Positions 3,547 to 42,532 of a DNA stretch of 54,571 nt are shown here, one piece after another. The notes beneath the pieces were generated by a model. That model did not search any database. It worked only from the letters and a program-made list of their open reading frames with translations, and was not told the origin of the DNA. Position numbers and translations under genes: made by a program. Positions within the stretch are counted from its first letter, which is position 1. Each line of letters starts with the position of its first letter. This DNA is from an uncultured bacterium (GTDB lineage: Bacteria > Patescibacteriota > Microgenomatia > UBA1400 > PJMF01): contig CAIMNJ010000017.1 of NCBI GenBank assembly GCA_903842795.1, positions 1 through 54,571 on the forward strand. The letters are read 5' to 3'.

Positions 3547-3613
3547 TGTTTTTGTCTTTCTCCGATAAAAAAAAGAAATAGGGTGGGGCAGTAAACAAAC
3601 GATCTAGCGCTTA

Positions 3614-3643
3614 CTTATACACAAAGTTTTCCACAATTAGCAA
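3614..3643 (-). promoter_or_regulatory. Putative dnaA promoter overlapped by two DnaA boxes
   Basis: Minus strand reads TTGCTA (3638-3643), an 18-nt spacer, then TATAAG (3614-3619). DnaA boxes TTATACACA (3615-3623, plus strand) and TTTTCCACA (3627-3635, plus strand) overlap the -10 and the spacer. A GGAGA motif lies about 13 nt before the ATG. Confidence 0.35.
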
Positions 3644-3661
3644 GAGGCAGTTTATTCGATA

Positions 3662-5878
3662 TTATTTTGGAGGCTTGTAGTCATTAATACTATAAATACC
3701 GTGCTGATCTGGTTTTACCTCTTTTTTATCAGAGTCATCAAAGATAGTTTTAATTTTATAATCTTGTTTAGGCTTTTCGCTTTTCTGATTGATTTGATCT
3801 CTTTGGTCAAGTTCCTTATCGGCGTTGAATTCAAGATTTTTATCTTCTAAAGCTTTTTCAGCATATCTGTCAGCATCTTTTAGAGGATCTTCTTTTAGTT
3901 CTATTTCTGGATTTTGCCAGCTTGGAGCGACTTTTTTTTCATCATTGTTGTTGCTTTTATAGTCAGAACTGTTAATTAAACGCTGTTTTCTTAATTCTCT
4001 ACTTTTTTTATAGCTTTCAAAACTTTCAGACCTAGGATTGGATCCAGAATTCATAGCTTTAACGGTTTCTTTTTCGTCTTTTTTACGAAGCATTTCTTCA
4101 GGATTGGTTGTAATAACCGCATGTTCATCTGGAGAAGCAATAACTTTGAGAGCAACATGGTTTTGTCCAGCAAAGAAAATTCCTTCGCCCACATCAGAAG
4201 AGACTAATAGCTGACGTTCACCCTCAGATAAATAAAAAGTTTGAGTTAGAATTGGCACAGAAGCAGTTGATTGCTTCATTAAAAATTGAATAGAAGCATT
4301 AGACACAATAGCTTTGCCATAGTCATTATGTAAAAAGTCTTCCACATCCTGGGTAATAGTAGTAATACCCAAATAGTATTTACGAGCTCTTTTAACCATG
4401 GAATAAACAAAGGCAGCACTATCTGGATGCATCATAAAATACCAGGCTTCATCAATTACTAAAATACGGCGTTTAAGGTTCTTTTTTACTCTAGTCCAAA
4501 TAAAATCAAGAATTACATACATTGCGATCGGACGGAGAGATTCTTCCATTTCTTTGACTGAAAAAACCGTAAACTGAGATTGAATATTAATATTTGAAGC
4601 TTGATCAAAAATACCTCGGAAAGAGCCAGTAATAAATTTTTCCAAACGAGCAGCAATATCATCACTTTCGTCTTGTTCCATACCGATTAAAGCTTTGTAC
4701 AAATCTTCCATGAGTGGAGGAGTGTTCTTTTGAGTGGCAGGATCAGGAGTGATGCCCTTCGCCTTGTATGCGGCAATAATTGATCGGTCAAGCAGAGCTT
4801 CTTGTTGAGGAGTCATCTCACCCAACATAACTTTAAGTAAGCCGTGAATAGATAAAATTTTCTGTCCAAGCTCGTTTTCACCTTCTTCATAAACATTGGA
4901 AAGGTCGAAAGGATTAATTTTGGCCTTAGAGCCAAAAGTAAAATTAATATATTCTCCACCAACCATCTTACAAAGCTCCTCATATTCGTGCTCTGGATCG
5001 AGAACAATGACCTCAGCATCAAACATGAGTTGTCGTAAAATTTCCAATTTAACAGTGTAGGATTTACCAGCACCTGATTTGGCGAAAATCACCATGTTGG
5101 CGTTTTCCATCTTAAAGCGATCAAAAATTACTAAAGAATCATTGTGTTCATTTATTCCGTAAACAATACCGGTTTCCATGGTTAGTTCAGAAGATGTGAA
5201 TGGAAAAGTGGTTGCTAGGGAAGTAGTATCCATATTTCTCGTTACAGAAAGACGATCTACACCCATTGGCAAGGTGGTTTTAAAACCTTCATCCATTTGT
5301 AGAGCTGATTTTTTAGAAACAATCATTAAAGCGCCTAAAGTGCTTTGAATGCTTTTGGTGATTTTATCCAAAATTTCTTTACTATCAGCGCGAACAGTAA
5401 CATAAAGCCCAAATTGGAAAAATCTTTCTGAACCAGCAGCAAGCTGTTCACGCATAGCACGCGCATCGCTTAGCTTGATCTCAGTATTAATATTGCTGAT
5501 TTTTCCAGATCTAATGTCAGAAGTAATTTCCGCCTCCATTTCAGTGATTTTTCTCTTTAAATTATCCAAGATATCGCCGGTATCTGAAGGAAAAACAAAC
5601 ATAGAAATATTTGCCTGCTGAGGATAATTAATCAATGGAGATAGCCAGTTTGCTGGAACTGCTCTTGGATAGCCGGCCACGAACAATGTACGAGTGTAAG
5701 TTGAGTTGATTTTTTGATAAGTAAAGTCAACCTCAATGGCTTCTGGGGCAATAATATCTTGAATTGTAACTAAGCCACGAGAAAACTCACTCAATTTTTC
5801 TTGAGTGTATTTTTCGACATCAATTTTATTTTGATCTGCCGAAGTCACTGCTGGTTTTTTACCAAATAGATTAAACAT
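3662..5878 (-). CDS. virB4: VirB4/TrsE-family type IV secretion ATPase with a long charged C-terminal tail
   Basis: 738 aa. Walker A is AKSGAGKSYTVK and Walker B is RILVIDEAWYFM. The downstream motif TTITQDVEDF is typical of the VirB4/TraC/CagE family. The last roughly 130 aa are K/E/D/N-rich low complexity. Confidence 0.85.
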   Translation of the reverse strand: MFNLFGKKPAVTSADQNKIDVEKYTQEKLSEFSRGLVTIQDIIAPEAIEVDFTYQKINSTYTRTLFVAGYPRAVPANWLSPLINYPQQANISMFVFPSDTGDILDNLKRKITEMEAEITSDIRSGKISNINTEIKLSDARAMREQLAAGSERFFQFGLYVTVRADSKEILDKITKSIQSTLGALMIVSKKSALQMDEGFKTTLPMGVDRLSVTRNMDTTSLATTFPFTSSELTMETGIVYGINEHNDSLVIFDRFKMENANMVIFAKSGAGKSYTVKLEILRQLMFDAEVIVLDPEHEYEELCKMVGGEYINFTFGSKAKINPFDLSNVYEEGENELGQKILSIHGLLKVMLGEMTPQQEALLDRSIIAAYKAKGITPDPATQKNTPPLMEDLYKALIGMEQDESDDIAARLEKFITGSFRGIFDQASNINIQSQFTVFSVKEMEESLRPIAMYVILDFIWTRVKKNLKRRILVIDEAWYFMMHPDSAAFVYSMVKRARKYYLGITTITQDVEDFLHNDYGKAIVSNASIQFLMKQSTASVPILTQTFYLSEGERQLLVSSDVGEGIFFAGQNHVALKVIASPDEHAVITTNPEEMLRKKDEKETVKAMNSGSNPRSESFESYKKSRELRKQRLINSSDYKSNNNDEKKVAPSWQNPEIELKEDPLKDADRYAEKALEDKNLEFNADKELDQRDQINQKSEKPKQDYKIKTIFDDSDKKEVKPDQHGIYSINDYKPPK

Positions 5879-5883
5879 TTTTA

Positions 5884-7287
5884 TTAACTATCATTTTGAC
5901 TGTTAAATTTGTTTTGTAGTGGTGTTATTTCTTCAGCAAAATCACTTACTGGTTCGTTTTGACCAGCGCTTATGTTTGGTTGTGAATCTGCTTGAGAGTT
6001 GTTTTGTTCTGCAGCATCGTAAGAAACGCTTTCCTCAACAAAGTTTTGTGTAAAATCTGAATTAGAGTCGCTTTGTGGTTTATTGGAGGCAATTAGGTCG
6101 GCATTTAAATTTAAGTCTAATTCTGCTGGTTGATCTTGTTTTTCCTCAACCTTTTGTTCTTCTGGAAACACATTATTTGGAGCTGGTATTTCTGCAGTCG
6201 TATTAGCACTTAAATCAGGCATAGAGTTGATAGCTGTATTAAGATCAGGGCTAATAGTAGAACTAGAAACAGGATTGGAAGGTAATTCTGAGGCATTGGT
6301 TAAATTTTGTTGAGCTGGCTCAACTGATTGCAAAACTTGAGTTTGTTGCTCCACTAAAACTGGTTCGCTTGCTGGAGTTGGAGGAGTAATTTGTGTCTCT
6401 GGAGTCATTGATGGGGTAGTAGCTGTGACTGGAATCTGAGATTGAGGCTGAGCTTCTGGTTGAACTACAGGTTCGGCTTGAATTACTGGGTTTGTTTGCG
6501 CTGCAGCTGGCACTGATTGATTGGCTTGAGCGGCGGTTGGGGCAGGGTTGCCACTAATGATTTCTTCCGCGGTGGGATTGTTTGTTGTTGGTTGCATAAG
6601 TTTTCCTCCAAAACTCGCTCTCACTAGAGGAGTAGTATAATTTTCGCTGCTGCTGATTTCTTGTCCTTCAGCTGCTTCAGGATTGTAATTAATATAAAAA
6701 TTTTGAATGATTTCTTGTGTAGCTAGTTGTCTTGCATAAAGACCAAGACGATTGAATTGAGAGGTAAGATGATCTTTGCGCGGCTCTAATAAATTAGTTG
6801 CTTTTTCAAGTAATATGCTTTTTTCTACCATTGAGATATCAAAACTTGTTTTCCCAGGAAGAACGCTTGAAGGGGTGATTAAGCCCATTTCTCCAGGAGT
6901 GGCTGGAACAACAATATAAAAACGTTTTTGTAAAACATTTCTTTCTTTAATTAAGGCAGCTACAAAATCTCTATATTTTTTAATTAAATTTGCTTTTCTA
7001 TCAGAGCTGGCTTTAGCAATTTGCTCATCAAGAAGTCTTAAATATTTAGTAGCATCTTTTGTTTGAGACTGAATATTTATTTGAATTGGGTAATTTAAAG
7101 AGTTTAATAATGATCCATAGGTAAAAATAACAGCGTCTTGTTCTTGCTCAGCCAATAAACTGAAATTCATTGTACCGATTTGAAGAATTATGGCTGCTGT
7201 GCCATCCTTCAATAAAACCATGTCGTTGACAATGTCATAGACATCAAGAAATTCTTGAGTAGTAGAACTAATCACTTTATCGCTCAT
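5884..7287 (-). CDS. T4SS-associated protein: N-terminal half resembles an ATPase-less VirB4 N-domain, C-terminal half is P/Q/T/S-rich and disordered
   Basis: 467 aa, 5 nt upstream of virB4. The N-terminus FLDVYDIVNDMVLLKDGTAAIILQIGTMNFSLLAEQEQDAVIFTYGSLLNSLNYPIQINIQS follows the pattern seen at the N-termini of Gram-positive VirB4-like proteins. No Walker motifs are present. Confidence 0.35.
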   Translation of the reverse strand: MSDKVISSTTQEFLDVYDIVNDMVLLKDGTAAIILQIGTMNFSLLAEQEQDAVIFTYGSLLNSLNYPIQINIQSQTKDATKYLRLLDEQIAKASSDRKANLIKKYRDFVAALIKERNVLQKRFYIVVPATPGEMGLITPSSVLPGKTSFDISMVEKSILLEKATNLLEPRKDHLTSQFNRLGLYARQLATQEIIQNFYINYNPEAAEGQEISSSENYTTPLVRASFGGKLMQPTTNNPTAEEIISGNPAPTAAQANQSVPAAAQTNPVIQAEPVVQPEAQPQSQIPVTATTPSMTPETQITPPTPASEPVLVEQQTQVLQSVEPAQQNLTNASELPSNPVSSSTISPDLNTAINSMPDLSANTTAEIPAPNNVFPEEQKVEEKQDQPAELDLNLNADLIASNKPQSDSNSDFTQNFVEESVSYDAAEQNNSQADSQPNISAGQNEPVSDFAEEITPLQNKFNSQNDS

Positions 7288-7311
7288 GAGCCTTAATTAG
7301 TTTACTAAATT

Positions 7312-8172
7312 TTATGGCTTGATTACAAGGGGATTGAGAATTTCACCAATTAATTTAATCTGGTGAGTTGAATATTTCTCGCCGTTTTTTTCTACTTCCA
7401 CAAAATAATCTCCATTTTCTAAGGTTTTACTGGAAATAAAATTGCCATACTTATCTGTTTTCATGATTCTTAAGCTTTGGTTGTTTTGATCTTTTATTTC
7501 TACTATAGCTTGGTCAATAGCAGTGCCATTATCATCAACAACTAATCCATATATTTGGTTTGGTAGATGTTCGCTACTAGCAACAAAAGTTTGGATTTGT
7601 GGAGATTTAAGTTTTCTAACTCTGGTTTTAAGGCTTGGTTTTTCTTGTTTTTTCTCTTCAATTTCTATATCTTCTTTAGCAACTTGAACTTTATCGAAGT
7701 CATTTAAAATATCATTAATTTTATTATTTTCAGCAAGATCATAGTCATCAAGTTGTTCATCTACAGGAATACTTTTAATGTATTCAGATATTCTTTGTCT
7801 TTTTGCTGGATTTAGGTTGACATTTGGTGCAAAAAAGTCTTGTTGAACGCTGGTGATTTTATAATTAAAAAAATCTGGAACTTTATTTGCTTTGCGCCAA
7901 AAAAACTTAGTAGGGCGATAGATGTTTTTAAAAAATGTCTTAATCCAATGATCCATTGGTCTTTCTTCAATCGGAACAAAGGCAATTAATGCTCCAAATC
8001 CAACAGATAAAAGGATAAGTGGCCATTTAACAATTCCAATTAGATTGGTTTTGTAAATTACAAAAGCAAGTACAACTCCAACAGCCAAAATAGCAAATTG
8101 TTTAAGAGTCATTTGACCAATGAGATGAAATTTGTAGTTGGTGATATCTTGTGGAATTGGATGTTGTTTCAT
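7312..8172 (-). CDS. PrgI/VirB3-like membrane protein fused to a carboxypeptidase-regulatory-like beta-sandwich
   Basis: 286 aa. The N-terminus PIPQDITNYKFHLIGQMTLKQFAILAVGVVLAFVIY plus a second TM helix matches the PrgI-family layout. The C-terminus IYGLVVDDNGTAIDQAIVEIKDQNN...KTDKYGNFIS..LENGDYFVEVEK looks like a CarboxypepD_reg-type domain. Confidence 0.5.
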   Translation of the reverse strand: MKQHPIPQDITNYKFHLIGQMTLKQFAILAVGVVLAFVIYKTNLIGIVKWPLILLSVGFGALIAFVPIEERPMDHWIKTFFKNIYRPTKFFWRKANKVPDFFNYKITSVQQDFFAPNVNLNPAKRQRISEYIKSIPVDEQLDDYDLAENNKINDILNDFDKVQVAKEDIEIEEKKQEKPSLKTRVRKLKSPQIQTFVASSEHLPNQIYGLVVDDNGTAIDQAIVEIKDQNNQSLRIMKTDKYGNFISSKTLENGDYFVEVEKNGEKYSTHQIKLIGEILNPLVIKP

Positions 8173-8195
8173 CGCTACTCCATTTTAGCAGGTTT

Positions 8196-9212
8196 TTATT
8201 TCTCTTTAGCAGTTTCAACTGCAGGAGTAATAATAATGGCTTCAATATTTAATCCAGCAGTATTGGTCAACTTGGCATTAAATTTATAAAAAGGATAAAC
8301 AATTTTGAGTTGTTCATCAAAACGATAATCAATGCTGGCTGAATATAGATCAGCTTCTTTGATCCAGTTAAGATCAATAGATGGCGTAACTTTGCTTTTT
8401 GCATCAATAATTGAAGCTTCACCATTTTTGATTTTTTTAATTGCTTGATCAATAGAGATAGAGGGTAATTCCTTTAAAATGGAAAATTCTTGAAAAAAAT
8501 CTCTAAAAACCGCTCTTTGCATGGTATACATGTTGTCAACTCGGCAAAAGAACGGATAGTCTTTTTTATTTTCATAAAAAACTTGATATCCATCTAATTC
8601 GTAAGTGAGTGGTATTTGTAAAAAAGTAGCATCTTTTTTGGCAACAAGAATCTGTTCCAAGTTGCTATTTAAATAAAGAATATCGTTTTTTTGCGGTAAT
8701 AGTTTGGCTGAAATGTTATATTTTTTATAAAAATTAAGACAAACATTAATCGCCTCATCTACAATAATTTTTAGTTCACTATTGCCATTTTGGTTAGCTG
8801 CTTCGGTAAATAAATAATTATGCTCATAGTCATTTTTGGCCAAAGCATTTTTTTCACCAACCCAATAGTTGGGGATTTTTTCATTAACACTAAGTTGATA
8901 ATCGTTAATTAATCTATTTGCTAATTCTTCTGCTAAGCCAGCATTGTTTTGTGCCTGATAAATATTAAATTTCTCTGGAATAATTATTTTTTCTCCAGAA
9001 TAAGAAACTTTTTTAAAAGTAGTCTGAGTATCGTTGTAATTATTGAAAGTGAAATTATTAGCGACGATTTTTTCTTTAATTGGGGTCAGAATACTAAAAA
9101 TAATGCTAACAATTAATAAAATAAGACAAACAACAATGACTAAAAAAATAAATTTTTTGTTCTTTGCTTTATGATCTTTTTCATTTATTGTTTGGGCTGT
9201 TGGGTTTGGCAT
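8196..9212 (-). CDS. Bitopic membrane protein of unknown function, possible VirB8/TcpC-like slot
   Basis: 338 aa. It has a short basic N-terminus, one TM helix (FIFLVIVVCLILLIVSIIFSIL) and an extracytoplasmic domain of about 290 aa. Only topology and position in the locus support the call. Confidence 0.25.
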   Translation of the reverse strand: MPNPTAQTINEKDHKAKNKKFIFLVIVVCLILLIVSIIFSILTPIKEKIVANNFTFNNYNDTQTTFKKVSYSGEKIIIPEKFNIYQAQNNAGLAEELANRLINDYQLSVNEKIPNYWVGEKNALAKNDYEHNYLFTEAANQNGNSELKIIVDEAINVCLNFYKKYNISAKLLPQKNDILYLNSNLEQILVAKKDATFLQIPLTYELDGYQVFYENKKDYPFFCRVDNMYTMQRAVFRDFFQEFSILKELPSISIDQAIKKIKNGEASIIDAKSKVTPSIDLNWIKEADLYSASIDYRFDEQLKIVYPFYKFNAKLTNTAGLNIEAIIITPAVETAKEK

Positions 9213-9217
9213 ATTTT

Positions 9218-12200
9218 TTATTGATCATAACAACTTGTAACATGATCTCCGACTTGTGGTGGATAATGTCCTTCGTCTGTAGGCGGCATTAATTGTTCAA
9301 TAGTTGAGCTGGCTGGTCTTGAGCCCCACCATCCACCTCCTGCATCAATGACAGTTCCAAAGTGAGAGTGAACATCGCCTATACCTCTATTACTCATAAA
9401 TCCAATCATAAAACCAGCTTCCACCTGCATGCATGATCCTGGCGTACTGAGACTGGGGTTTGGCTCTTGGAAGTGAGCGAAGTCTTCATACAGGGTTTGC
9501 CCGCCATTTTGAAATTCTAAAATATAGCGGCAGCCATATTGATCATCATCACATCTTACAAAGCAAAGATTGCCATCAAAATTAGCGTAAACGGGGGGAC
9601 CATAAATAGCCGCTCCAGAGCAACTATCGCAACCAATATCATAACTGTCGCCATAACCACCAGCATTTGGAGGACTGTGGCTATAATCACCAAATGGTAG
9701 TTGCCAGATGGTTCCAGTGCTTGGCCAGCACCCAGCGCCAGCACTACAATCTCCAAGACAGACTCTAGCTGCCGTGATCACATTGTCAGTACCGGACATG
9801 TAGGAATTTTGATAATAAAAATTTACTTCAATAGTGTTAAGAATTGCTAAATGATTGTATTCAGGGCCTAAATTTTCCAATTTGTATGTAAAAGTTAAAC
9901 TGCTGCCAGCAGGAATAACAATAACTCCGTCAGCTGTATTTGGTGTGGGTGTTGTTGTGGGATCTGTTGGAGTTTCAATTCCAATTGTTGGAACAGGAGA
10001 AGTATCTAGCGGAATAGTGCTAAAACCACCTTGTTCACTGAGAATATTTTTAAAATAGTCAAATTCCAAAACCCTTTCTTCTTCTATATTTGGCATGCTT
10101 TGTCCAGCGTCTTCCCAGCCCTTTTCGCTTTGATTAAATTTGATAGTATCTTTTATGTCTGTGATTTGAATAGAAAAATCTTCTTTTGGTTTGATGGTGA
10201 CAGTGTATTCAATTGTGACTGGAAAAGATGGATTCTCACATTTTGCACCATCATTCTCTGGATTGGCGCAGCCATCAGTGATAACAGCAGTCTTGTCAAT
10301 TTCAGCATATTTGGATGTTTTTTCTACGCTATTAATAATTTCAGCTTCATTTTTTGGAAAGTCAGTTAAAAAAGCTGAATTAAGACTGGTTTGATAAATA
10401 AACATAAAAACTGTGCTGGCTCCAGCTGTCACCACAACAGCTTGACCGGCGGTAACCATAGCAGAAGATGAAAATTGACTCATTAAAGTTTTGGCACCTT
10501 GAGGCATTTGTGAACCAAATCCTTGACCTTGAATTCCAGTTTGGCCGTATATACCTGCGTTGCCACCACCTCCGCCACCAAAACCAATTCCTTGGCTTAT
10601 TCTGCCAGCAGCATTGTTGGCTCCAGAAAAAAAGTTTTTTATTCCAGTCCAACCATTTCTCAATAAAATTGCTGCAGGTGCTAAAAGCAAAAGAAGCGGA
10701 AGCATTGAGCCTAAGGCTGCTAAAACAGCTAAGCCGACCAGCCATGGCCAATTTTTTTTGAGAAATTCAAGAATTTTCTCCAAGCCCATCTCAATGAGTT
10801 TGTCTTTGATTTGTTTAATTATTGGCGCCGCCGCCTCGGCGGCGCGCAAGGCTTCACCCCAACCGCCAGCAGCATCAAGAGCAAGATATAAACCTTGATC
10901 AAGTGCTTCAACAGCTAGTTTTTTGCCTTTTCTACCAATTGCACTATCAAGAAAGCTAGTACCATGATATCCAGCTAGTGGGTCGCCTCTAAAAGACTCT
11001 TGAACGTAGCCACTTCCATCCTGACGAAATGCTCCAGGCCCAAATTCTTCTGCAGCTTGGATCATATAAAAATCCATCGGATTTATTTTTGGAACGATTT
11101 GGGTTTGGAAAATCTGAATGTTGTATTCAGTGAATTCCACTCCTGGCATGTAGATGTCAAAATAAACTTTGAGAGTTTTTTGTTGCTCTTCTTTATTGAG
11201 CTTGGCAACTTTTTCTTCTAGGAATTTTTCAATTAGCTCTTTTTGTTGAGCTTCAAATTGCTCAGCCTCTATACTATCGAGGGTTTTTTCTCCGTCTTCT
11301 ACTTGACCTGCGAGTTCTTCTGCAACTGCTTTACCTCCATAAGTGTAGTTGAGAGTGCCAAGATTGCGGAGTTGAGCGCGTTTTTTTGGATCTTTTTTAA
11401 TTTCGGCTAGGATTTTTTGTGCTTCTTCAGGGGTATATTTTTCTTGGATAAATTCTTCACGAATTTCTCTGGCCCAAATGGCTCTTTTTCTTTTCCAATA
11501 AAAAATAATTAGGTTGGCTAATTCTTCTTTATGCGCATTAAAGTCGGCTTGATCTAGACTTTTGCCAAAGATATTAACAAACCTGTTATAGTCAAAGTTT
11601 TTAGCATTGGGTATTAAATACTCTGGTGGGAGGCCTTGCTGAATAAAAACTTCGATTATTGGGCGAATGTTGTCCGCGGCTAGTCTAAGTTTAACATTGT
11701 CTTGGTCGCCAACGATTCCTCTTAATTTTTCTATTAAAACTTGTTCTAGTCTTGTTTCGTCGCCAACAATATTTAATTCTGATTCGATAATTTTGGCAAA
11801 GTCTGGAGTTTGTCCTTTTTGGTCGAGGATTTCTTGAGCTTTTTTAGTATTGAGGGCGTTTTCTTTTTCAGCTTTAATTTTTTCACTTAGTTGTTTGTCT
11901 TTTAAAATTTCTTGCTCATTTTTTTTGATGGTTTTTTCACCACCTTTAGCAATGTCTCGTACTGCATCGTTGAGTAATTTAAGACCATGGACATCCATTA
12001 ATAAGCCAAGAGCAGCTTGGCTACTAAAAATAATTCTCTGTGATTGCTCTTTGATTAAACTATCTAGCGAGAATTGGCCGCTCAAGAGTAAACCTTCCAC
12101 TTGCAAGAAGGCGCGATCCATTAGTTGTCTACGCACTTCTAATGGTAGTTGGTCAAAAGTTACTTGCGTTCCTGGTGGAAGACCTAACTTGGCTAATGAC

Positions 12201-13039: not shown

Positions 13040-13060
13040 TGGCCTTTAAATAGTAAGAAA

Positions 13061-13069
13061 TGATATAAT
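13061..13069 (+). promoter_or_regulatory. Extended -10 element TGATATAAT, 19 nt upstream of the 13089 ATG
   Basis: Perfect TGnTATAAT in the 49-bp divergent spacer. It is the same 9-mer as upstream of rpmH. Confidence 0.45.
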
Positions 13070-13088
13070 ATCCGCATCTAGTTAGACT

Positions 13089-16166: not shown

Positions 16167-16253
16167 AGATCTGTGCTCATCTCTTCATTAATTTGCAAAA
16201 AAGTTCTAAAAGAGTAGAAATGTAGAAATATTGAAAAATTTAATTTTTAAAAA

Positions 16254-17933
16254 TTATTTTTTCTTATTAAAATAATCTCTCATCATCTTAGTTAAATCTT
16301 CAGGATCAAAAGCTCTACCTTCAACTAAACGGTCAAGTTGTACTCTAATGGCTTGTCCACGGTCAAAACCCTTCTTGGCCCCACCCATACCTTCAGGCAA
16401 GTCTTGATGAGAACCAGTCACACCACCAAAGTTTACGGCGGGAATTCCAGCTTCTGGATCACCTTTTCTCTGATATCCAGTCCAAGCATGTTTTAGTACA
16501 TCCATGCCGCTGGCACCGCTACCATAATCTCTCTTATAGTTGATTCCTGATTTAATTCCACCATAAGCGCCTTCAGCAACACTAGTAATCAGTGGAGCAG
16601 TGATTGTGCCTTCTTTCATTCTCTTAAATGCACTACCTGCCAATTGTCCAGCAATGCCGTCTTCAACACCCATGGCTTTTTTGACTTGCTGCATGATTTC
16701 TGGGATGACCAATAAAACACCAATACCAAGAATAACTGGCACGATTGAGCCTTGTCCTTGGCCAACCAAGAATGGTGGCATAAAACCTCCGCCAAAAGCA
16801 GCATCAAGAGTTTGGCCTGTGCCTTGAAGACTGCGAATTGGAGCAGTGAGCATGCGTTGTACCAAAATACAAAGTAAAACTACTGGCCAAAGGATGAGAT
16901 TACCAGTTAGATCTTTGATCCATTTACCAAAAACATTTTTGCCTGGAAAGGCACCCATCATCAAAATAATAGGGGAGAAAATAATTTGAATAAGGACAGC
17001 AACATAGGCTTTGACTAGTTCAAAGAAAACTTTGAAACTAGCAAAAAGAATAGCGATACCAATAATTACGGTACCCAGTAAACTTGACATCCAAGCAATA
17101 GCTTCGCCAACCAAACCAATGTTGAGTGCATCCTCCATGAATTGCTCGATGGCGTTTTGGGTGGTTCCGGTAGTACCCTTAAACATTAAACCAACCAAAC
17201 CAAAGATATTGTGAGTAACAATTTGTGGACCCTCGGTGAAAAATCCGGCCAACATGTACATCATTACGTACATCAAATCGATCATAAAACCAGCGATAGC
17301 ATAAGAAAAAGTAACGGCCAGCATGGCAATAATGATATTGGGAATAGCTTGTTGAGCAGTGATGGCTGCCTGATCAACTTTGGTTCTGAACATAATCATG
17401 AAACCAATTACCAAGAAAGCGACTACGAAAAACAAATAAGCTAAGTTTCGAAAAGCCTTCCAAGTTTCAAGGATTGGATCAAGAGCAGAAAAGCCAAGAC
17501 CTTGAGCCTGGGCTTCTGGAATAATTTTGGCTGATTTCATAACGTCTGCCACGTAGGTGCGAGCACTGGCTGGAGGAGTGTACATGGCTACGATGCCGCT
17601 ATTTATGTCTCCAAGAACACCATAGCCAATTTTTTTCTCCAATTCTTTCATGGTACTTTGAGGAATACTGCCGTCTTTGGGAATGGCAGCCATACCAACC
17701 GAGTGAAGATTGATGTTGCTAAGCGTATTAGAAAGACTTTCAGCGTCAAATTTCTCTTTATCAGCATTTTTGCTAGAAAAAGATTTAACATTCTTTTCTG
17801 TAGAATCATTGGTAAAAATATTTTGTAAATAATCAATAATTCCAGCAGCTCTAGTTGGTTTGGCAGATGCAAAGAAGCATGAAAAGACAAAAAACAAAAT
17901 CAAAAGCAAGCGAGAGGTTTTTTGCTGCAACAT
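16254..17933 (-). CDS. VirB6/TrbL-like polytopic membrane protein
   Basis: 559 aa. It has a signal peptide (LLLILFFVFSCFFASAKPTRA), at least 6 TM helices in the central part, and a Gly-rich cytoplasmic tail. The call rests on topology and locus context. Confidence 0.5.
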   Translation of the reverse strand: MLQQKTSRLLLILFFVFSCFFASAKPTRAAGIIDYLQNIFTNDSTEKNVKSFSSKNADKEKFDAESLSNTLSNINLHSVGMAAIPKDGSIPQSTMKELEKKIGYGVLGDINSGIVAMYTPPASARTYVADVMKSAKIIPEAQAQGLGFSALDPILETWKAFRNLAYLFFVVAFLVIGFMIMFRTKVDQAAITAQQAIPNIIIAMLAVTFSYAIAGFMIDLMYVMMYMLAGFFTEGPQIVTHNIFGLVGLMFKGTTGTTQNAIEQFMEDALNIGLVGEAIAWMSSLLGTVIIGIAILFASFKVFFELVKAYVAVLIQIIFSPIILMMGAFPGKNVFGKWIKDLTGNLILWPVVLLCILVQRMLTAPIRSLQGTGQTLDAAFGGGFMPPFLVGQGQGSIVPVILGIGVLLVIPEIMQQVKKAMGVEDGIAGQLAGSAFKRMKEGTITAPLITSVAEGAYGGIKSGINYKRDYGSGASGMDVLKHAWTGYQRKGDPEAGIPAVNFGGVTGSHQDLPEGMGGAKKGFDRGQAIRVQLDRLVEGRAFDPEDLTKMMRDYFNKKK

Positions 17934-17939
17934 ATAACA

Positions 17940-17945
17940 AGTATA
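17940..17945 (-). promoter_or_regulatory. -10-like TATACT 6 nt upstream of the VirB6-like ATG
   Basis: Minus strand reads TATACT-tgttat-ATG, with no SD. Confidence 0.3.
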
Positions 17946-18004
17946 TTTTAAATTAAGTAGAGGAAAACTGCAAAAGATAAATCAAATTTATTTACTCAGA
18001 TCTA

Positions 18005-18033
18005 TTGACATGTTTCATAAAAACATTTAAAAC
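18005..18033 (+). promoter_or_regulatory. Sigma70-like promoter (TTGACA-17-TAAAAC) 8 nt upstream of the 18042 ATG
   Basis: TTGACA is at 18005-18010 and TAAAAC at 18028-18033. The spacer contains the inverted repeat ATGTTT-cataa-AAACAT (18010-18026). Confidence 0.4.
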
Positions 18034-18041
18034 TATCATAA

Positions 18042-18833
18042 ATGATCGATCAAGCACAAACTGATAGATTTAAAGAAATTTTAGCGCTTAGCAAAAATAC
18101 TTTAGTTATTTTTCCAGAAACCAAAAATCTTGACTTATTTCTGGCCAGTTATGGTTTTTTTCTTTTTTTATCTTCAAAAATGGGAGTTAGATTGCTAAGT
18201 CCCAAGTTTAAACATAAAATTCCGACCGAAATTGCAAATTTAGTGGACATGCAAAAAATTGAGAAAGAACTTGGCAAAGAAAATTTACTCATCAGTTTTC
18301 CATATAAGGAAGACCAGGTGGAAAATGTTTCTTATTATATTGGTGAACAAGACAAGCGCTTTTATCTAACCATCAAGCCAAAAAAAGGCTCTCAACCATT
18401 ACAAAGCTCAAGCGTGGAGTTTTCTTATGCGGGCACAGAAGTGGATTTGTTAATTTTATGTGGAGTAGAGAATTTGGAAAATTTATCACAATTATATTTT
18501 GCTTATGAGAATTTATATAAAGGTACCGACAACCATTTGGTAACGATCAATGACTTCATTCCTGATTTTGGTAGTCTAAATTTAGACATTTCAGCGACGA
18601 GCTCTTATTGCGAGGCTGTTTTTAGTTTGCTCAAAAATTTATATGAAGACAGTGAGGATTTATTTACTAAAAGCAATATTCCAACAATTTTACTCTATGG
18701 AATAGAAAACAAGACCAAAGCGTTGCAATCTTCTAAAGTCAGCGCTAATACCTTTTTGGCAGTAGCGGAGCTAATGAGTCTTGGGGCAGAACGTTTGTTT
18801 AAATTGCAAAATAATAAAGCAAGTAATGGCTAA
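18042..18833 (+). CDS. Degenerate DHH-family (NrnA-like) protein, catalytic motifs apparently lost
   Basis: 263 aa. It is collinear by eye with the NrnA DHH domain: DLLILCGVENLENL vs VIVCDTAN, HLVTINDF at the DHH position, SSYCEAVFSLLK vs SSVSEMIYELY. The DHH histidines and the N-terminal DxD are absent, and there is no DHHA1 domain. Confidence 0.35.
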   Translation: MIDQAQTDRFKEILALSKNTLVIFPETKNLDLFLASYGFFLFLSSKMGVRLLSPKFKHKIPTEIANLVDMQKIEKELGKENLLISFPYKEDQVENVSYYIGEQDKRFYLTIKPKKGSQPLQSSSVEFSYAGTEVDLLILCGVENLENLSQLYFAYENLYKGTDNHLVTINDFIPDFGSLNLDISATSSYCEAVFSLLKNLYEDSEDLFTKSNIPTILLYGIENKTKALQSSKVSANTFLAVAELMSLGAERLFKLQNNKASNG

Positions 18834-21778
18834 GGTGCAGCCATTCCTGAACCTGATTCGTTGAGTAGAATAGCAGTTGTAACTGACCCAGGTCTTTCGT
18901 ATTTTACGTATTTGCTGCCATCGCTTAGGTTTTGGCATAGGCTAGAACTGGCAAAACAATGTTCTTTGACTTGTTGCAAATGAGCTTGAATTTTTTCTTC
19001 AGACCAAGCATCTGGAGAGTTGCTTTGAGCCATAAAATCTCTAATGTGTTGAGCAATTTGTTCCAATTCGTAGTCAGTGCCTTCGGTTTGACAGCTAAAT
19101 TCAGCGAAATCCATGCAATAAATTAAATCCATGTCTGAGTGTCTATCGTCGATCCAAGCAACTGGATGAGGGTGATCTTCTGCTGGAAATTGTGCTTCGC
19201 ATTTGCCGCCTTCGCGCCATCTTGTTGCTCTAGGATTATTGTCCATGTCGCTACTACAATTCATATTTCCAGGGCCATTGTAGTTACCAATAGCTTCAAC
19301 CAAATCTTCATATTGGATGTTGTTTTTATCAAAATTTCCTGGCCAATCATCTTTAATTAAGTGTTCCATGGCAGCTTTTGCGTCTTCTTTGAGACTAGTG
19401 CTAAGTGGTGCGCCACTAAAAACAGAGCCATTAGGATCGAGTCCAGCTTCAGTCCAGTGAATTCCAGCCACCACCTCACAAGGAATGCCTGTTTCTTGTT
19501 CTGCATATTCATAGGCTTCAATTAGTTCAGGAGTAATTCTTGGAGCAATGTCAGAGTTGAACATATTTTTGGCAAATTCAGGAATTTGACTTGCTGGAGG
19601 CAGGCCTTTAATGTTCTTAAAAGCTTCACCATTACAAAAAGACTGATTGGCAGCACCTTTTGGATCTCCTTTGCAGCGGCCAAGGAACATATCTTCAACT
19701 CTTTGGCAGGAGAGAATGTAATCATATGTTTGATTGTATGTGTTACGTAGCTTTTGCTGGATTTTACGCACCATAAAACCAAGTCCAAAATCTGGAAGCA
19801 ATAAATTACCCTTACTAGAAGATTCCATTCTGCTAGTGATATCGCTAAAGCCAAATCCGAAAGCATAGTGAGAACATTTCATGATTGTTGTCCAGACTCC
19901 ATTTTTAAAAATTTCTTCTGGCAGACATTCATCTATTGGATGGATTTCTTGTGAAGCGCCGATGCCCAAATCAGCACCTTTGATGGTGTAATATTTTGGA
20001 ATGGCACCCATCTTACTGGTGCCGTCATCGTTGGTCATATCTTCGATAATATTTGTTCTGACTAAATTGAAAAAATCCTCTTCACTCCAAAAAATACTTA
20101 GAGCCTTATTGGTATCTTTAATATTTTCACCTACTGGCAAAACAAGATAAGCATTAACAATCATTGGTGGATCTAGTGGTGGTCGATCTTCATCTACGAC
20201 CAGCTCCCATTCGAATGGGGTAATGTGTTTATCTTTCAGCTGATCAACTAATTGTTTGTTGGGTGAACTTCTGTAACTATATTGCTTCATTTCTTTTGAA
20301 GCGGGAGTGAACAGATCTCCAGCAGCTTCCCAGTTTAGGTCTTCTTGATTAAAAACAAGCTCAATACCACTTGCGGTGGCTTGTCTTTCATTGATCGCAA
20401 AACTGGACATATCAATCTGTTCACCGGTTTCGCTAGTGGTGTTTTCAATCACTCTGAGAGTGTCGTTTTTGCATTTTAGAGAAGCGCCATTAATGATACT
20501 GATAAGACTTTTTTCCAAAGGCTTGCCACATTTTGGATAGGGACAATGAATAACTGGATCTGGCTGAGTTTGTGCTAATTCGTAAAGCAACTCTCTTCTG
20601 TCAGCTTGATCTTTCAGGTCTTTGTCATTTTGTTCTTTTGGCTGAATGACCATTCTGGTAAGTTCTAGAGTGTCAATGTTGCCAGCAATTCTTGATTTGT
20701 TGGTGCCAAAATCTGGGATTTTAAAAGCGATAAAGATTGGGGCATGAACTTGAGCGTCTATTTGTGGATCTTCTTGTAGGAAATAAAACTTATCGCCATC
20801 ATCATCTTTCCCCGGATCTTGAGTGGGCACTAATACTAAGAAAGCAATACGATAAAGCGTATCCAAATCAATTGGAATGCGACCGATAGCTTCTCTGGTT
20901 TTAGCTATTTTGTCAGGACTTACCGTTGGTGGCTTATAGTCAATTGTTTGGGTATTGCTGTCACCACCAGTAAGATCAAAACAGACTTGTTGATAGAGTT
21001 TTTCACCTTCCAATTCTGGTCTGATTTCTTTCACCCAATCAAGTAAATCGGTAATTTTGAAGTCAACATCAACAATGTGCTGATCTGAAGTAATGTTGGC
21101 AGCTTCACCATCAGTGACTATTTTGCTGCCACCGTCTTGGTCAACGGCAATTTTAAAATTATATTTTTTATTAATAGTGCAGTCATCGGTAACTTCATCA
21201 CAAATAAGTTTGGAAGCCAAAATATTTTGAGTTTTGGCTAGACATTGTTGATAAGAAGATAAGACTCTTTTGCCAACGCCAGCAGCATTAAGCATGTAAC
21301 TGTTTTGAGCTGTTTGATAATTAGCGCCAAACATTCCTTCCAGAGAACTATTTTTTTGGGTGCTATTTTTGTCTTCCATGCCTCGATACATAGGAATGCG
21401 AGCCTTACTCATATCGACCAAATATGGATCAACACCATCAAAAATAGTTGGATTAAGGCCGTGATAAAAGCTTTCTTCTGGTGGAACATCTCCGCTAAAA
21501 AACTTATTGATGTCTCCAAGCAATTTTTTATCAATTGTCCACTGCATGGCAGCACAGTGAGCTTCATAGCCCTGATCTTTGACCATGGCCTTCAAAATTT
21601 CTTCAGTACTGTAACTAGTACCGTTTGGCAAAAACATTGGCATGAGTGTAAATGCACTTGTTGATTCTGCTGATTGAGCGGGGGAGTCTTCGGCTAAAAC
21701 CAAACTTGGAAAAAGCAAGGCGGAACAAACCATCAAAAACAAAACCAAAACCGCTTTTTTTGAAAATCGATTTAACAC
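18830..21778 (-). CDS. Large secreted protein with a C-terminal SLT/lysozyme-like domain (VirB1-type role)
   Basis: 982 aa with a signal peptide (VLVLFLMVCSALLFPSLVLA). Near the C-terminus, GIPCEVVAGIHWTEAGLDPNG and EAIGNYNGPGN resemble the SLT motifs (E-S/A-G-x-N/D-P and AYNAGPG). It is Cys-rich. The start codon is GTG. Confidence 0.5.
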   Translation of the reverse strand: MLNRFSKKAVLVLFLMVCSALLFPSLVLAEDSPAQSAESTSAFTLMPMFLPNGTSYSTEEILKAMVKDQGYEAHCAAMQWTIDKKLLGDINKFFSGDVPPEESFYHGLNPTIFDGVDPYLVDMSKARIPMYRGMEDKNSTQKNSSLEGMFGANYQTAQNSYMLNAAGVGKRVLSSYQQCLAKTQNILASKLICDEVTDDCTINKKYNFKIAVDQDGGSKIVTDGEAANITSDQHIVDVDFKITDLLDWVKEIRPELEGEKLYQQVCFDLTGGDSNTQTIDYKPPTVSPDKIAKTREAIGRIPIDLDTLYRIAFLVLVPTQDPGKDDDGDKFYFLQEDPQIDAQVHAPIFIAFKIPDFGTNKSRIAGNIDTLELTRMVIQPKEQNDKDLKDQADRRELLYELAQTQPDPVIHCPYPKCGKPLEKSLISIINGASLKCKNDTLRVIENTTSETGEQIDMSSFAINERQATASGIELVFNQEDLNWEAAGDLFTPASKEMKQYSYRSSPNKQLVDQLKDKHITPFEWELVVDEDRPPLDPPMIVNAYLVLPVGENIKDTNKALSIFWSEEDFFNLVRTNIIEDMTNDDGTSKMGAIPKYYTIKGADLGIGASQEIHPIDECLPEEIFKNGVWTTIMKCSHYAFGFGFSDITSRMESSSKGNLLLPDFGLGFMVRKIQQKLRNTYNQTYDYILSCQRVEDMFLGRCKGDPKGAANQSFCNGEAFKNIKGLPPASQIPEFAKNMFNSDIAPRITPELIEAYEYAEQETGIPCEVVAGIHWTEAGLDPNGSVFSGAPLSTSLKEDAKAAMEHLIKDDWPGNFDKNNIQYEDLVEAIGNYNGPGNMNCSSDMDNNPRATRWREGGKCEAQFPAEDHPHPVAWIDDRHSDMDLIYCMDFAEFSCQTEGTDYELEQIAQHIRDFMAQSNSPDAWSEEKIQAHLQQVKEHCFASSSLCQNLSDGSKYVKYERPGSVTTAILLNESGSGMAAP

Positions 21779-21784
21779 GACTTG

Positions 21785-21790
21785 ATTATA
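21785..21790 (-). promoter_or_regulatory. -10 hexamer TATAAT 6 nt upstream of the GTG start of the 982-aa gene
   Basis: Minus strand reads TATAAT-caagtc-GTG, inside the 27-bp gap after the pilin-like gene. Confidence 0.3.
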
Positions 21791-21805
21791 CTAATAATAG
21801 GGGTT

Positions 21806-22447
21806 CTAGGAAAGAATGCGAATTCCAAAAATCAACTCTAGTAGTTGAGCAATCCAATAGGCCGCAAAAAGCAAGATAAAACCCATAATAGCAGCGGTAA
21901 TTCTTTGCTTTCCCTCATCAAGTGATTTGGAATTATTTGCTCCAGCGAGCATTTGAAAGCCTCCGAGCAATAAAACCATAAACAAAATAATACCGGCGAT
22001 TGGAAATACAAAACTGCCTAAAGCTTTAGAAATAATTCCTCCAGGAGTAGTTAGGTCAGCATCACCACCACCAACGGAAATAGGATTAAGATTGCCTAGA
22101 GTTTGTTCACTAACGGTGGTATTTCCAAAGATACAATCTTTTGCTCCAGCAGCATAGGTTTCTCCACAGAAAGCAGTGGTTTCGCTTGGGTTGGCGGTTA
22201 AGCATGAATCCCAAGAATCACCTTGTTGTACCCAGCCGCAACAAATCCCTCGGTTAGTCCAAATGATATCCCATTGCTCATATGATTCCCACTGTGCACC
22301 TGGACAATTGCAGATTGCGCCATCTGGAACAGTTGCGCTACCATTAGTTTCGCCACAGCCATATTCGGTTGCTTTAGCAATTCCAGCAAAAAGAAAAATA
22401 AAAACTATTTGTAGAAATATGGTTCTAATAATTTTTTTCATGATCAT
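21806..22447 (-). CDS. T4SS pilin-like protein (VirB2/TrbC-type C-terminal hairpin) with a Cys-rich N-terminal ectodomain
   Basis: 213 aa with a signal peptide. The C-terminus FPIAGIILFMVLLLGGFQMLAGANNSKSLDEGKQRITAAIMGFILLFAAYWIAQLL has two TM helices and a basic loop, the layout of T4SS pilins common in CPR genomes. The mature N-terminal part has 9 Cys. Confidence 0.65.
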   Translation of the reverse strand: MIMKKIIRTIFLQIVFIFLFAGIAKATEYGCGETNGSATVPDGAICNCPGAQWESYEQWDIIWTNRGICCGWVQQGDSWDSCLTANPSETTAFCGETYAAGAKDCIFGNTTVSEQTLGNLNPISVGGGDADLTTPGGIISKALGSFVFPIAGIILFMVLLLGGFQMLAGANNSKSLDEGKQRITAAIMGFILLFAAYWIAQLLELIFGIRILS

Positions 22448-23310
22448 TCTCCAAATCCTGGGATGTGCAGAATCGATACACCAATAAATTGTAAAATAGT
22501 AACTGAAAAAATAACAAACAAAAGTCCAATAATTGCAGAAGTGATGTTTTCCTTAGCCTCCTTGGTTTTATTTGGATCACCTTGAGATACAGATAACATA
22601 AAAGCGCCAACTAAAATCATAATTAAAACAACACCACCTCCAAGTGCCAAACCAATGGTGATTACAACTTTGATGATTTCATCTGGTTTGCTAGGAATAC
22701 AACCAATTGCTGTCCAGATGCCATTGCCATTGAAACAAGTGGCGCAAGCTTCATATTGAGGAGTGCCAGTTTTGATTTGAGCACAAAGCTCGTAGTTGGA
22801 GGTGCTGTCTAAATTTTCATTGCATTCTTCTGCAGCACATTGAGCCTGCACCATAGTGGAGCTGGCGACAACAACAGTATTATTCTCACCGCCATTTTGG
22901 CCATCATAGTCATTAGAAAGGTGGACAATAAATTCGTAAGAACAGCCGCCCTTAATTTCACTTCCTGGAATGGTTAGGTTTGCTGAGCCATTAGTAACAA
23001 CTGCTTCAGTGTAGCCAATTTCTGGCCAGTCGCTGCAACCACTGCTACCATTAATTCTGACTTTAACATTGGCGCCATCTGGAAAAGGTAGTCCATTATT
23101 GTATGCGAGACCAGATAAATTGACGGTAGCATCAGTTCCAGCTTCTACACAACCATTAAAAAAACTACAGCTTTTGCCGTCTCTAGTTTGATAAACTTGG
23201 GAAGTTTCTATAATTGGCGCTGGGTCGCCAGCAAAAACCTTTTCTTTACTCAAAGAAACTGCAATGCATAAGAACAAAAAACCAAGAGCAATTTTTCTCA
23301 TCTTTTTCAC
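22444..23310 (-). CDS. T4SS pilin-like protein (VirB2/TrbC-type C-terminal hairpin) with a roughly 190-aa Cys-rich ectodomain
   Basis: 288 aa with a signal peptide. The C-terminus VVITIGLALGGGVVLIMILVGAFMLSVSQGDPNKTKEAKENITSAIIGLLFVIFSVTILQFIG supports the pilin call. It overlaps the next gene by 4 nt (ATGA). The track start is GTG. The ATG at 23299-23301, preceded by AAGGGTG, is a likely alternative start. Confidence 0.7.
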   Translation of the reverse strand: MKKMRKIALGFLFLCIAVSLSKEKVFAGDPAPIIETSQVYQTRDGKSCSFFNGCVEAGTDATVNLSGLAYNNGLPFPDGANVKVRINGSSGCSDWPEIGYTEAVVTNGSANLTIPGSEIKGGCSYEFIVHLSNDYDGQNGGENNTVVVASSTMVQAQCAAEECNENLDSTSNYELCAQIKTGTPQYEACATCFNGNGIWTAIGCIPSKPDEIIKVVITIGLALGGGVVLIMILVGAFMLSVSQGDPNKTKEAKENITSAIIGLLFVIFSVTILQFIGVSILHIPGFGE

Positions 23311-25079: not shown

Positions 25080-25103
25080 CTTTTTCAAAAGCTGTTGTTG
25101 AAC

Positions 25104-32243: not shown

Positions 32244-32246
32244 TAA

Positions 32247-41229: not shown

Positions 41230-41257
41230 CTTAATGTTAAGATTAAATGATAACAAG

Positions 41258-41968: not shown

Positions 41969-41970
41969 TT

Positions 41971-42528: not shown

Positions 42529-42532
42529 AAAT

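Follow-up and report, generated by a model that had tools for sequence, protein, structure and literature searches.

Two bodies of work describe type IV secretion systems (T4SSs) close to the locus analysed here, which lies at positions 3662-23310 of a 54,571-nucleotide contig (CAIMNJ010000017.1, assembly GCA_903842795.1) from an uncultured bacterium of the Microgenomatia; this whole contig is called the window below. Wang et al. 2023 reported a T4SS in Southlakia epibionticum ML1 (Saccharibacteria), encoded by SEML1_0006-0019 just after dnaA/dnaN/recF (PMC10633639). Nearly all of its genes, SEML1_0012 excepted, were essential by transposon sequencing (Tn-seq), and the system was needed for epibiotic growth (PMC10633639). 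It is closest to Gram-positive conjugative systems, yet it has pilins and carries neither a coupling protein nor a relaxase (PMC10633639). The structure-based table of the ML1 genes lists a lysozyme/Cys-protease protein, a large one with a LAS-type peptidase at its C-terminus, VirB4, a protein in the TrsD position, PrgI, an NTF2-like protein, VirB6 and six pilins (PMC10633639).

Quinonero-Coronel et al. 2025 surveyed 3,035 Patescibacteria assemblies and found VirB4 in 2,417; most of these belong to a single clade that branches inside mating-pair formation type FATA (MPF-FATA) (PMC12102498). In that survey TrsD, PrgI and VirB2 arrays lie beside virB4, TrsD being the commonest accessory component, and relaxases are nearly absent (PMC12102498). 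VirB6, VirB8 and VirB1 are hard to recognise, and VirB6 is hardly recognisable in the Microgenomatia (PMC12102498). Common neighbours of the T4SS in Paceibacteria and Microgenomatia are dnaA/dnaN, and homologs of the type IV coupling protein (T4CP) within 20 genes of virB4 amount to 148/5,713 in the Patescibacteria (PMC12102498). A 2025 review adds the Patescibacteria system to the T4SS superfamily as a new member (PMC12857230).

The window locus appears to be a resident, origin-adjacent T4SS of the Patescibacteria (candidate phyla radiation, CPR), which derives from monoderm MPF-FATA machinery, has no relaxase and would serve epibiosis. This reading is drawn from profile matches and synteny, and we put its probability at roughly 85%. 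The bearer is probably a freshwater bacterium of a Pacebacteria-like (Microgenomates) lineage. An annotation made from the letters alone (the sequence-only reading) had proposed a chromosomal, non-mobilising T4SS-like machine and not a conjugative element. Synteny, the lack of mobility genes and a uniform base composition support that proposal, and for the phylum the published survey came to the same view (PMC12102498).

Conservation of the locus beside dnaA

One genome per GTDB species was scanned with the family of the 1273-amino acid (aa) protein of the locus, which returned 14 loci, and a scan of metagenomes added two species. The order dnaN-dnaA-VirB4-TrsD-PrgI-338-1273-slot-VirB6-like-263-982-pilins, in which numbers are protein lengths in aa and the slot is a position of variable content, is found again in as many as nine further species-level genomes, and in seven of them a single contig carries it completely or almost completely. 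The syntenic loci on long contigs (L001-L004, L007, L008, L012, L021 and L025) were compared as far as each extends; L002 holds the N-terminal half of virB4 only and L021 stops within the 982-aa gene. Identity to the window protein was 84-95% for VirB4, 79-87% for DnaA, 62-79% for the VirB6-like 559-aa protein, 62-71% for PrgI, 52-69% for the 982-aa protein, 41-65% for the 1273-aa protein and 41-62% for the 338-aa protein. The 263-aa protein is 55-75% identical in nine relatives and keeps both its position and its opposite strand. Gene order from dnaN to the pilins is thus kept across up to nine other species, which marks the locus as a resident chromosomal system and not an integrative and conjugative element (ICE). 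The sequence-only reading had named gene order and dnaA linkage in relatives as a check, and in these genomes the locus is present and linked to dnaA.

The relatives are labelled as Candidatus Pacebacteria UBA1364, UBA6188 and UBA6180, as Parcubacteria group or as Patescibacteria group. Others, among L001, L003, L004 and L007, carry the label 'uncultured Pseudomonadales' (several) or TM6 (the complete 853-kb CP011212). In their dnaA and T4SS genes they share 79-95% identity with the Pacebacteria-labelled genomes, so the Pseudomonadales and TM6 labels are probably wrong.

Mobility genes were sought by Pfam scans of the larger open reading frames (ORFs) of the window, which covered most of those with at least 100 aa. 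Neither a relaxase nor an integrase was found among these ORFs across the 54.5 kb, and no att-like repeats flank the locus, the direct repeats there being short and imperfect. The absence of all three, as first read from the letters, therefore holds for the larger ORFs and the flanks. The guanine-plus-cytosine (GC) content of the locus is 0.35-0.40, the same as in the remaining window.

Layout of the locus

By ORF analysis the limits of the locus are exactly those given before, and its genes are listed in Table 1. On the minus strand the order of transcription is pilin 288, pilin 213, 982, 559, 1273, 338, PrgI-like, 467, VirB4, dnaA, dnaN. Spacers between the genes of the locus run from -4 to 108 bp, in agreement with the nearly gap-free run described earlier, and the 115-bp distance between VirB4 and dnaA, which lies downstream on the same strand, was confirmed. 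Co-orientation with dnaA applies to nine minus-strand genes of the locus; it fails for the 1025-aa and 263-aa genes, which break the run on the plus strand. The 263-aa gene overlaps the 3' end of the 982-aa gene by 4 bp.

Table 1. Position, strand and basis of assignment of the genes in and near the T4SS locus (window coordinates)
Feature	Position	Strand	Basis
dnaN, downstream of dnaA	552-1661	-	three Pfam DNA_pol3_beta domains
dnaA	1969-3546	-	Pfam Bac_DnaA, Bac_DnaA_C
VirB4-type ATPase, 738 aa, CD1110/MPF-FATA type	3662-5878	-	NCBIfam, Pfam
TrsD/TraD-like protein, 467 aa	5884-7287	-	NCBIfam TrsD, VirB4_plasma
PrgI/VirB3-like membrane protein, 286 aa	7312-8172	-	Pfam PrgI
YycH-like bitopic protein, 338 aa	8196-9212	-	AlphaFold2 and Foldseek
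Bitopic protein with C-terminal M23, 1273 aa	9218-13039	-	homologs, profile, invariant residues
Cytoplasmic slot protein, no known family, 1025 aa	13089-16166	+	no family match
Polytopic VirB6-like candidate, 559 aa	16254-17933	-	topology, weak Mbov_0396 match
Conserved cytoplasmic protein, 263 aa	18042-18833	+	synteny; no family match
Secreted two-module protein, 982 aa	18830-21778	-	signal peptide, phmmer, hhalign
VirB2-type pilin, 213 aa	21806-22447	-	Pfam T4SS_pilin
VirB2-type pilin, 288 aa	22444-23310	-	Pfam T4SS_pilin
Soluble VirD4/T4CP-like ATPase, 714 aa	32247-34391	-	Pfam

The position relative to the replication origin was judged from DnaA-box-like 9-mers. Five of the 21 in the window sit in the two short spacers that flank dnaA: three in the very AT-rich dnaA-dnaN spacer (1662-1968, 307 bp) and two in the VirB4-dnaA spacer (3547-3661). 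This clustering is consistent with an origin-proximal position of the locus, and oriC may lie between dnaA and dnaN. GC skew tracks gene strand in the window and is therefore unusable for placing the origin. Rfam and ARAGORN returned no matches on the window.

VirB4 and the adjacent TrsD-like and PrgI-like proteins

The VirB4 ATPase scored 392.6 bits against the NCBIfam model conju_CD1110 (cutoff 325) and 87.6 bits against Pfam P-loop_TraG, with further matches to AAA_10 and CagE_TrbE_VirB. Against NCBIfam VirB4_plasma it reached 270 bits, under the curated cutoff of 590. The Walker A and Walker B residues are invariant among the orthologs, and the C-terminus is a charged tail of about 140 aa. 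With the conju_CD1110 score over its cutoff and the invariant Walker motifs, the VirB4 call made earlier was borne out.

The genes for the TrsD-like and PrgI-like proteins lie directly upstream of virB4. The first ~200 residues of the 467-aa protein match NCBIfam TrsD with an expectation value (E) of 6e-6, under the curated cutoff, and the mycoplasma VirB4 model VirB4_plasma aligns over its positions 102-234 with residues 9-128 (E 1.4e-6, also under cutoff). In the aligned orthologs the N-terminal half (~230 aa) is invariant, and a tail rich in P, Q, S and T is variable in length and unalignable. Profile-profile comparison (hhalign) of the 467-aa family with the window VirB4 family was not significant, and the family profile gave nothing usable against PDB sequences. 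Judged from the two NCBIfam matches, the 467-aa protein can be assigned as TrsD/TraD-like, and it seems to resemble the N-terminal region of VirB4. The sequence-only reading had placed it in no family, which these matches correct.

The 286-aa protein matches Pfam PrgI (E 4.2e-9, 37.3 bits, cutoff 27), as expected from its earlier description as PrgI/VirB3-like. It has a transmembrane hairpin at residues 17-70 and a C-terminal beta-sandwich with a match to CarboxypepD_reg (E 7.7e-7, under cutoff).

The polytopic 559-aa protein, the pilins and the 263-aa protein

The 559-aa protein is predicted to carry a signal peptide and to cross the membrane five times or more, and its membrane core is near-invariant in eight orthologs. 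Three of the eight match the NCBIfam ICE membrane protein Mbov_0396; the window protein does so at E 4.7e-4 and 19.7 bits, under the curated cutoff of 70. The family profile yielded nothing usable against PDB sequences. Topology and this faint match lend weak support to the 559-aa protein as a VirB6-like candidate. So faint a signal fits the published remark that VirB6 is barely recognisable in Microgenomatia.

Both pilins score above the cutoff of Pfam T4SS_pilin (PF18895, 26.6 bits), the 213-aa protein with 28.4 bits and the 288-aa protein with 31.2 bits, so that the two VirB2/TrbC-like pilins noted before are upheld. Each consists of a signal peptide, a Cys-rich ectodomain (~110 aa in the shorter and ~190 aa in the longer pilin) and a C-terminal transmembrane hairpin. 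The two are 29% identical, limited to the hairpin. The 288-aa pilin also matches the NCBIfam pilin-like family Mbov_0395 (E 1.8e-6, 27.5 bits, under the cutoff of 40). At 213 and 288 aa, the VirB2-type pilins of this locus are unusually long. Wall-related genes border the pilin end at 23349-26912 and encode a SpoIID-domain protein (576 aa) and a VanW/PG_binding_4 protein (602 aa); a SpoIID gene also adjoins the pilins in the relative locus L003.

The conserved 263-aa protein gave no family match in Pfam (E up to 10), NCBIfam or PHROGs. Its best PDB match, NrnA (DHH), had a non-significant E of 0.92.

Two candidate cell-wall hydrolases

The 1273-aa protein has a single strong transmembrane segment at 764-794, so that ~760 aa lie on the cytoplasmic side and the M23 part on the outer side. 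Its own sequence had no match, M23 included, in Pfam (at E up to 10), NCBIfam or PHROGs. Many of its 33 full-length homologs have a precomputed PF01551 domain, and one of them, from a Patescibacteria group bacterium, is named M23 family metallopeptidase. A 21-sequence profile of the family matches 20 solved M23 peptidases (best E 1.2e-4). The putative zinc ligands H1121, D1131/D1134, H1224 and H1226 are invariant. By homologs, profile and ligands, the C-terminus is an active-looking M23 (LAS) metallopeptidase, as the sequence-only reading had suspected, and it is likely a functional stand-in for VirB1.

The cytoplasmic ~760 aa of the same protein are highly conserved. A model of the N-terminal part reached a predicted local distance difference test (pLDDT) score of 67.6; in it a disordered linker (187-247) separates an alpha/beta domain (17-185) from a helical remainder. 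Foldseek gave no fold match for this model (best E 2.7). The earlier statement that this part belongs to no recognisable family still stands.

The 982-aa protein has a signal peptide. An exhaustive phmmer search with it returned 312 cluster representatives and resolved two modules, ~20-710 and a Cys-rich ~710-895, which are also found separately. The C-terminal module pairs with CHAP in one relative and with a T4SS pilin in another, distant one (P0142); ten small proteins that carry it show no lysozyme-type Pfam domain. A 24-sequence profile of the module was aligned by hhalign to a soluble lytic transglycosylase (SLT) reference of five E. coli domains (Slt70, EmtA, MltC, MltD and MltF), with a P of 0.002 and a probability of 13%. 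In this register the invariant Glu of GIHxxE falls on the SLT catalytic Glu and YNGxGN on AYNxG. An SLT/lysozyme-like identity of the C-terminal domain is plausible from this alignment. PrgK-type VirB1 proteins join M23-type and lysozyme-type activities, as the two window hydrolases possibly do between them.

A YycH-like protein at the position expected of VirB8

The 338-aa protein is bitopic: one transmembrane helix at the N-terminus precedes three alpha+beta domains, arranged in tandem outside the cytoplasm. It has 45 homologs, of which the 44 with less than 99% identity range from 44 to 62%; none has a Pfam domain. The family profile returned nothing usable against PDB sequences. An AlphaFold2 model built from 44 sequences had a pLDDT of 87 and a predicted template-modelling score (pTM) of 0.77. 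When this model was compared with PDB by Foldseek, YycH came first (9a5d_B with E 2.5e-5 and 2fgt with E 2e-4, probability 1.0), at low template-modelling (TM) scores of 0.26-0.32. The protein had been listed as without family; this remains true at the level of Pfam domains in the homologs, and the confident model now shows a resemblance to YycH.

A VirB8 identity was rejected at whole-model level, where the matches are to YycH. The 338-aa protein occupies the position expected of a VirB8-type assembly factor and shares a VirB8-like topology, and in the model its fold as a whole is not that of VirB8.

A hypervariable slot on the opposite strand

The slot between the VirB6-like and M23 genes is always on the opposite strand, and its content is hypervariable, with at least four protein types in ten species. 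In the window it is filled by the 1025-aa protein, which has no transmembrane segment and no signal peptide. This protein has no match in Pfam, NCBIfam, PHROGs or PDB, searches with the family profile included, and so remains without a family as first stated. Type 1a comprises the window protein and those of L001 and L007 (46-53% identical to it), and type 1b those of L008 and L012 (23-25%). Type 2, in L002 and L004, is a pair of 824-831 aa and 350-355 aa that is unrelated by BLAST and hhalign. Type 3, in L003, is an unrelated 719-aa protein. Type 4, in L021 and L025, measures 913-926 aa and has only ~100 N-terminal residues (31%) in common with type 2. The 1025-aa protein of the window is thus replaced by unrelated proteins in five species. 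None of the slot proteins shows a convincing transmembrane segment or signal peptide, and the Pfam scan, which covered types 1-3, found no significant domain.

L008 is among the closest relatives by its VirB4, 982-aa and 1273-aa proteins. Its slot protein is only 25% identical to that of the window, which indicates that the slot evolves out of step with the flanking genes. The sequence-only reading had suggested that the unassigned proteins may be lineage-specific core parts. This does not hold for the 1025-aa protein, which sits in the hypervariable slot and is no conserved core part. We also considered that the slot could be a fast-turnover cargo position for lineage-specific T4SS substrates (effectors) or host-range determinants; this is a speculative and rather doubtful proposal.

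A VirD4-like ATPase and other genes of the window

One gene had escaped the earlier inventory. The soluble VirD4/T4CP-like ATPase (Table 1) matches TrwB_AAD_bind with 44.5 bits (cutoff 20.5), TraG-D_C with 25.2 bits (cutoff 22) and DUF87. It carries a Walker A motif at residue 337 and a precomputed DUF8128 domain at the N-terminus, and it lacks transmembrane segments. The gene lies 9 kb outside the cluster and 18 genes from virB4. It is convergent with radA (AAA_25, zinc ribbon, ChlI) at a distance of 3 bp, the pair spanning 30819-34391. Whether the ATPase belongs to the T4SS is uncertain.

Further along, three consecutive genes with N_methyl prepilin motifs (41072-42994, plus strand), one with T2SSG, encode type IV pilus or pseudopilin components. 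The first of them overlaps the start of a convergent 728-aa TPR gene (39190-41376). They stand beside a giant surface protein of 2816 aa, encoded within 42999-54560 on the minus strand, which has four Laminin_G_3 domains, glycine-rich domains and an Ig-like domain. Directly upstream of its gene, on the same strand, is a 1029-aa Gly/Thr-rich ORF of no family. GC content over 42999-54560 climbs to 0.44-0.48, compared with ~0.38 elsewhere. The 2816-aa and 1029-aa products are probably surface adhesins.

Comparison with described systems

The comparison with ML1 rests on the published table and description of its genes. Like the window locus, the ML1 T4SS is chromosomal and lies beside dnaA/dnaN. 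Both have VirB4 next to a TrsD-like protein, PrgI, a large protein with a C-terminal LAS-type peptidase (SEML1_0007 in ML1) and VirB2-type pilins, and in neither does the cluster include a relaxase or a T4CP. ML1 also has a hydrolase of lysozyme type (SEML1_0006) and a VirB6-like polytopic protein, for which the 982-aa and 559-aa proteins are weak candidates in the window. Differences concern the pilins, six short ones (103-185 aa) in ML1 and two long ones (213 and 288 aa) in the window, and VirB6, which is extended to 1088 aa in ML1 compared with 559 aa for the candidate here. The NTF2-like SEML1_0012 contrasts with the YycH-like protein of the window. Neither the variable slot on the opposite strand nor the 263-aa gene has a counterpart in the ML1 table.

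With the Patescibacteria clade of the survey (PMC12102498), the window shares an MPF-FATA-type VirB4, the TrsD, PrgI and VirB2 genes, the absence of a relaxase and the dnaA/dnaN neighbours. Recognisable VirB6, VirB8 and VirB1 are likewise scarce in the survey, Microgenomatia included. The window differs in having a T4CP homolog within 20 genes of virB4, which is infrequent there. The M23 fusion with its 760-aa cytoplasmic part, the YycH-like protein and the variable slot, all features of the window, are not described in the survey.

MPF-FATA systems of Firmicutes (the C. difficile CTn-type CD1110 family, pCF10 Prg/Pcf and pGO1 Trs) resemble the locus in that its VirB4 exceeds the CD1110 cutoff, equivalents of PrgI and TrsD are present and VirB7, VirB9 and VirB10 are absent. 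Unlike these systems, the window cluster has no relaxase, no membrane-anchored T4CP and no PrgB-type adhesin, and the locus carries VirB2-type pilins and is chromosomally fixed. In mycoplasma ICEs, the trio Mbov_0395/0396/0397 (NF045849, NF045889, NF045975) consists of a pilin-like hairpin, a polytopic protein and VirB4, and all three models match the window. The scores stay under the cutoffs (27.5 vs 40, 19.7 vs 70 and 270 vs 590), which speaks for shared ancestry at most and not for membership. What forms the N-terminus of the mycoplasma VirB4 is a separate TrsD-like protein in the window, and the mycoplasma elements are mobile, unlike the window locus. Because VirB4, the polytopic protein and the pilin all match these adjacent ICE families, there are hints in the profiles that the pilin-like hairpin goes back to a monoderm ancestor instead of having been taken over from diderm systems.

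Discussion

The conserved gene order, the VirB4 type and the lack of mobility genes argue for a resident Patescibacteria T4SS beside dnaA. In such a machine, VirB4, the TrsD-like and PrgI-like proteins and the polytopic 559-aa protein would form the membrane translocon, with the YycH-like protein taking VirB8's role as a scaffold outside the cytoplasm. Local opening of the cell wall would fall to the M23 domain and to the 982-aa protein's C-terminal domain, and the pilins would polymerise into a filament or conduit on the cell surface. Judged by its S. epibionticum counterpart, the machine would serve epibiotic host interaction, through transfer of proteins or other macromolecules or through contact, and not DNA self-transfer.

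Several results weigh against this reading. Its function is taken by homology only, from a system in another class of the phylum, and in ML1 the gene order differs, the hydrolases lying on the other side of virB4. The top 50 Foldseek matches of the 338-aa model include no VirB8, TraM, TcpC or PrgL. The TrbL/VirB6 Pfam models matched neither the 559-aa protein nor its seven orthologs; the VirB6-like call of the sequence-only reading thus keeps its polytopic topology and the Mbov_0396 matches in three of eight orthologs, but not the support of the standard models. For the SLT-like C-terminus of the 982-aa protein, single sequences and 8- and 24-sequence profiles found no match in Pfam, NCBIfam, PHROGs or PDB sequences. 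That earlier call therefore gains the register of both motifs and the P of 0.002 and lacks any database match. Finally, the VirD4-like ATPase 9 kb away leaves room for a DNA-related role.

The alternatives can be weighed on the same data. The locus could encode a substrate-free machine for pilus assembly and adhesion, with the large-ectodomain VirB2-type pilins as its product, attaching to the host. Both pilins carry Cys-rich ectodomains of 110-190 aa before the VirB2 hairpin with a mutual identity of only 29%, and no coupling protein is encoded within the locus. Divergent pilin arrays are typical of the phylum (PMC12102498) and are essential in S. epibionticum (PMC10633639). These genomes, however, already encode type IV pili for adhesion, and the window holds the three N_methyl pseudopilin genes; two candidate wall hydrolases together with a conserved 760-aa cytoplasmic domain suggest more than the assembly of a filament. 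We regard a machine of this kind as unlikely.

A machine for DNA import or export, comparable to archaeal Ced, H. pylori ComB or the gonococcal DNA-release T4SS, would combine VirB4 with the soluble VirD4-like ATPase, and RadA would process the DNA. The T4CP-like ATPase with its TrwB DNA-binding domain does adjoin radA fewer than 20 genes from virB4, and VirB4 has weak matches to the CedB and CedD models; these are far under the cutoffs and reflect the common ATPase fold. T4SS loci of the ABY1 class co-localise with comF, recG and radA (PMC12102498), and these organisms are unable to make nucleotides (PMC10633639). Against this, the S. epibionticum T4SS is essential whereas its T4CP homolog is not, and loss of ComEC-dependent competence leaves viability unaffected (PMC12102498, PMC12857230). 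A DNA machine is quite improbable on this evidence.

An ICE or ICE remnant inserted by chance next to dnaA would account for a VirB4 whose family takes its name from the Clostridioides ICE ATPase CD1110 and which resembles mycoplasma ICE VirB4, for the weak matches of the pilin and the polytopic protein to Mbov_0395 and Mbov_0396 and for the T4CP-like ATPase in the window, but it is largely refuted by a position and gene order shared with up to nine other species, among which VirB4 is conserved to the same degree as DnaA, by the lack of a relaxase or integrase (larger ORFs scanned) and of flanking repeats in 54.5 kb, by the absence of a compositional break and by a T4CP-like protein that is soluble and stands among housekeeping genes, so that we rejected this highly improbable origin on synteny and the missing mobility genes.

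The resident epibiosis-related T4SS thus remains our preferred reading, and the system itself is already known from the papers of 2023-2025. All elements of the find have been published, the dnaA linkage and the unusual pilins included, so the window is one more instance; the conclusion of the sequence-only reading was sound and re-derives known results. What the window adds is a well-conserved Pacebacteria-like example that confirms the published picture. Three leads go past that picture and leave the classification unchanged: the fusion of M23 with a cytoplasmic part, the YycH-like protein at the VirB8 place and the hypervariable slot. The slot within an otherwise orthologous locus seems to be the one new observation. 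Before the system of the Patescibacteria, no T4SS had been shown to be essential to the bacterium that carries it. If the slot did hold substrates of the machine, it would give a first handle on the actual cargo of a Patescibacteria T4SS.

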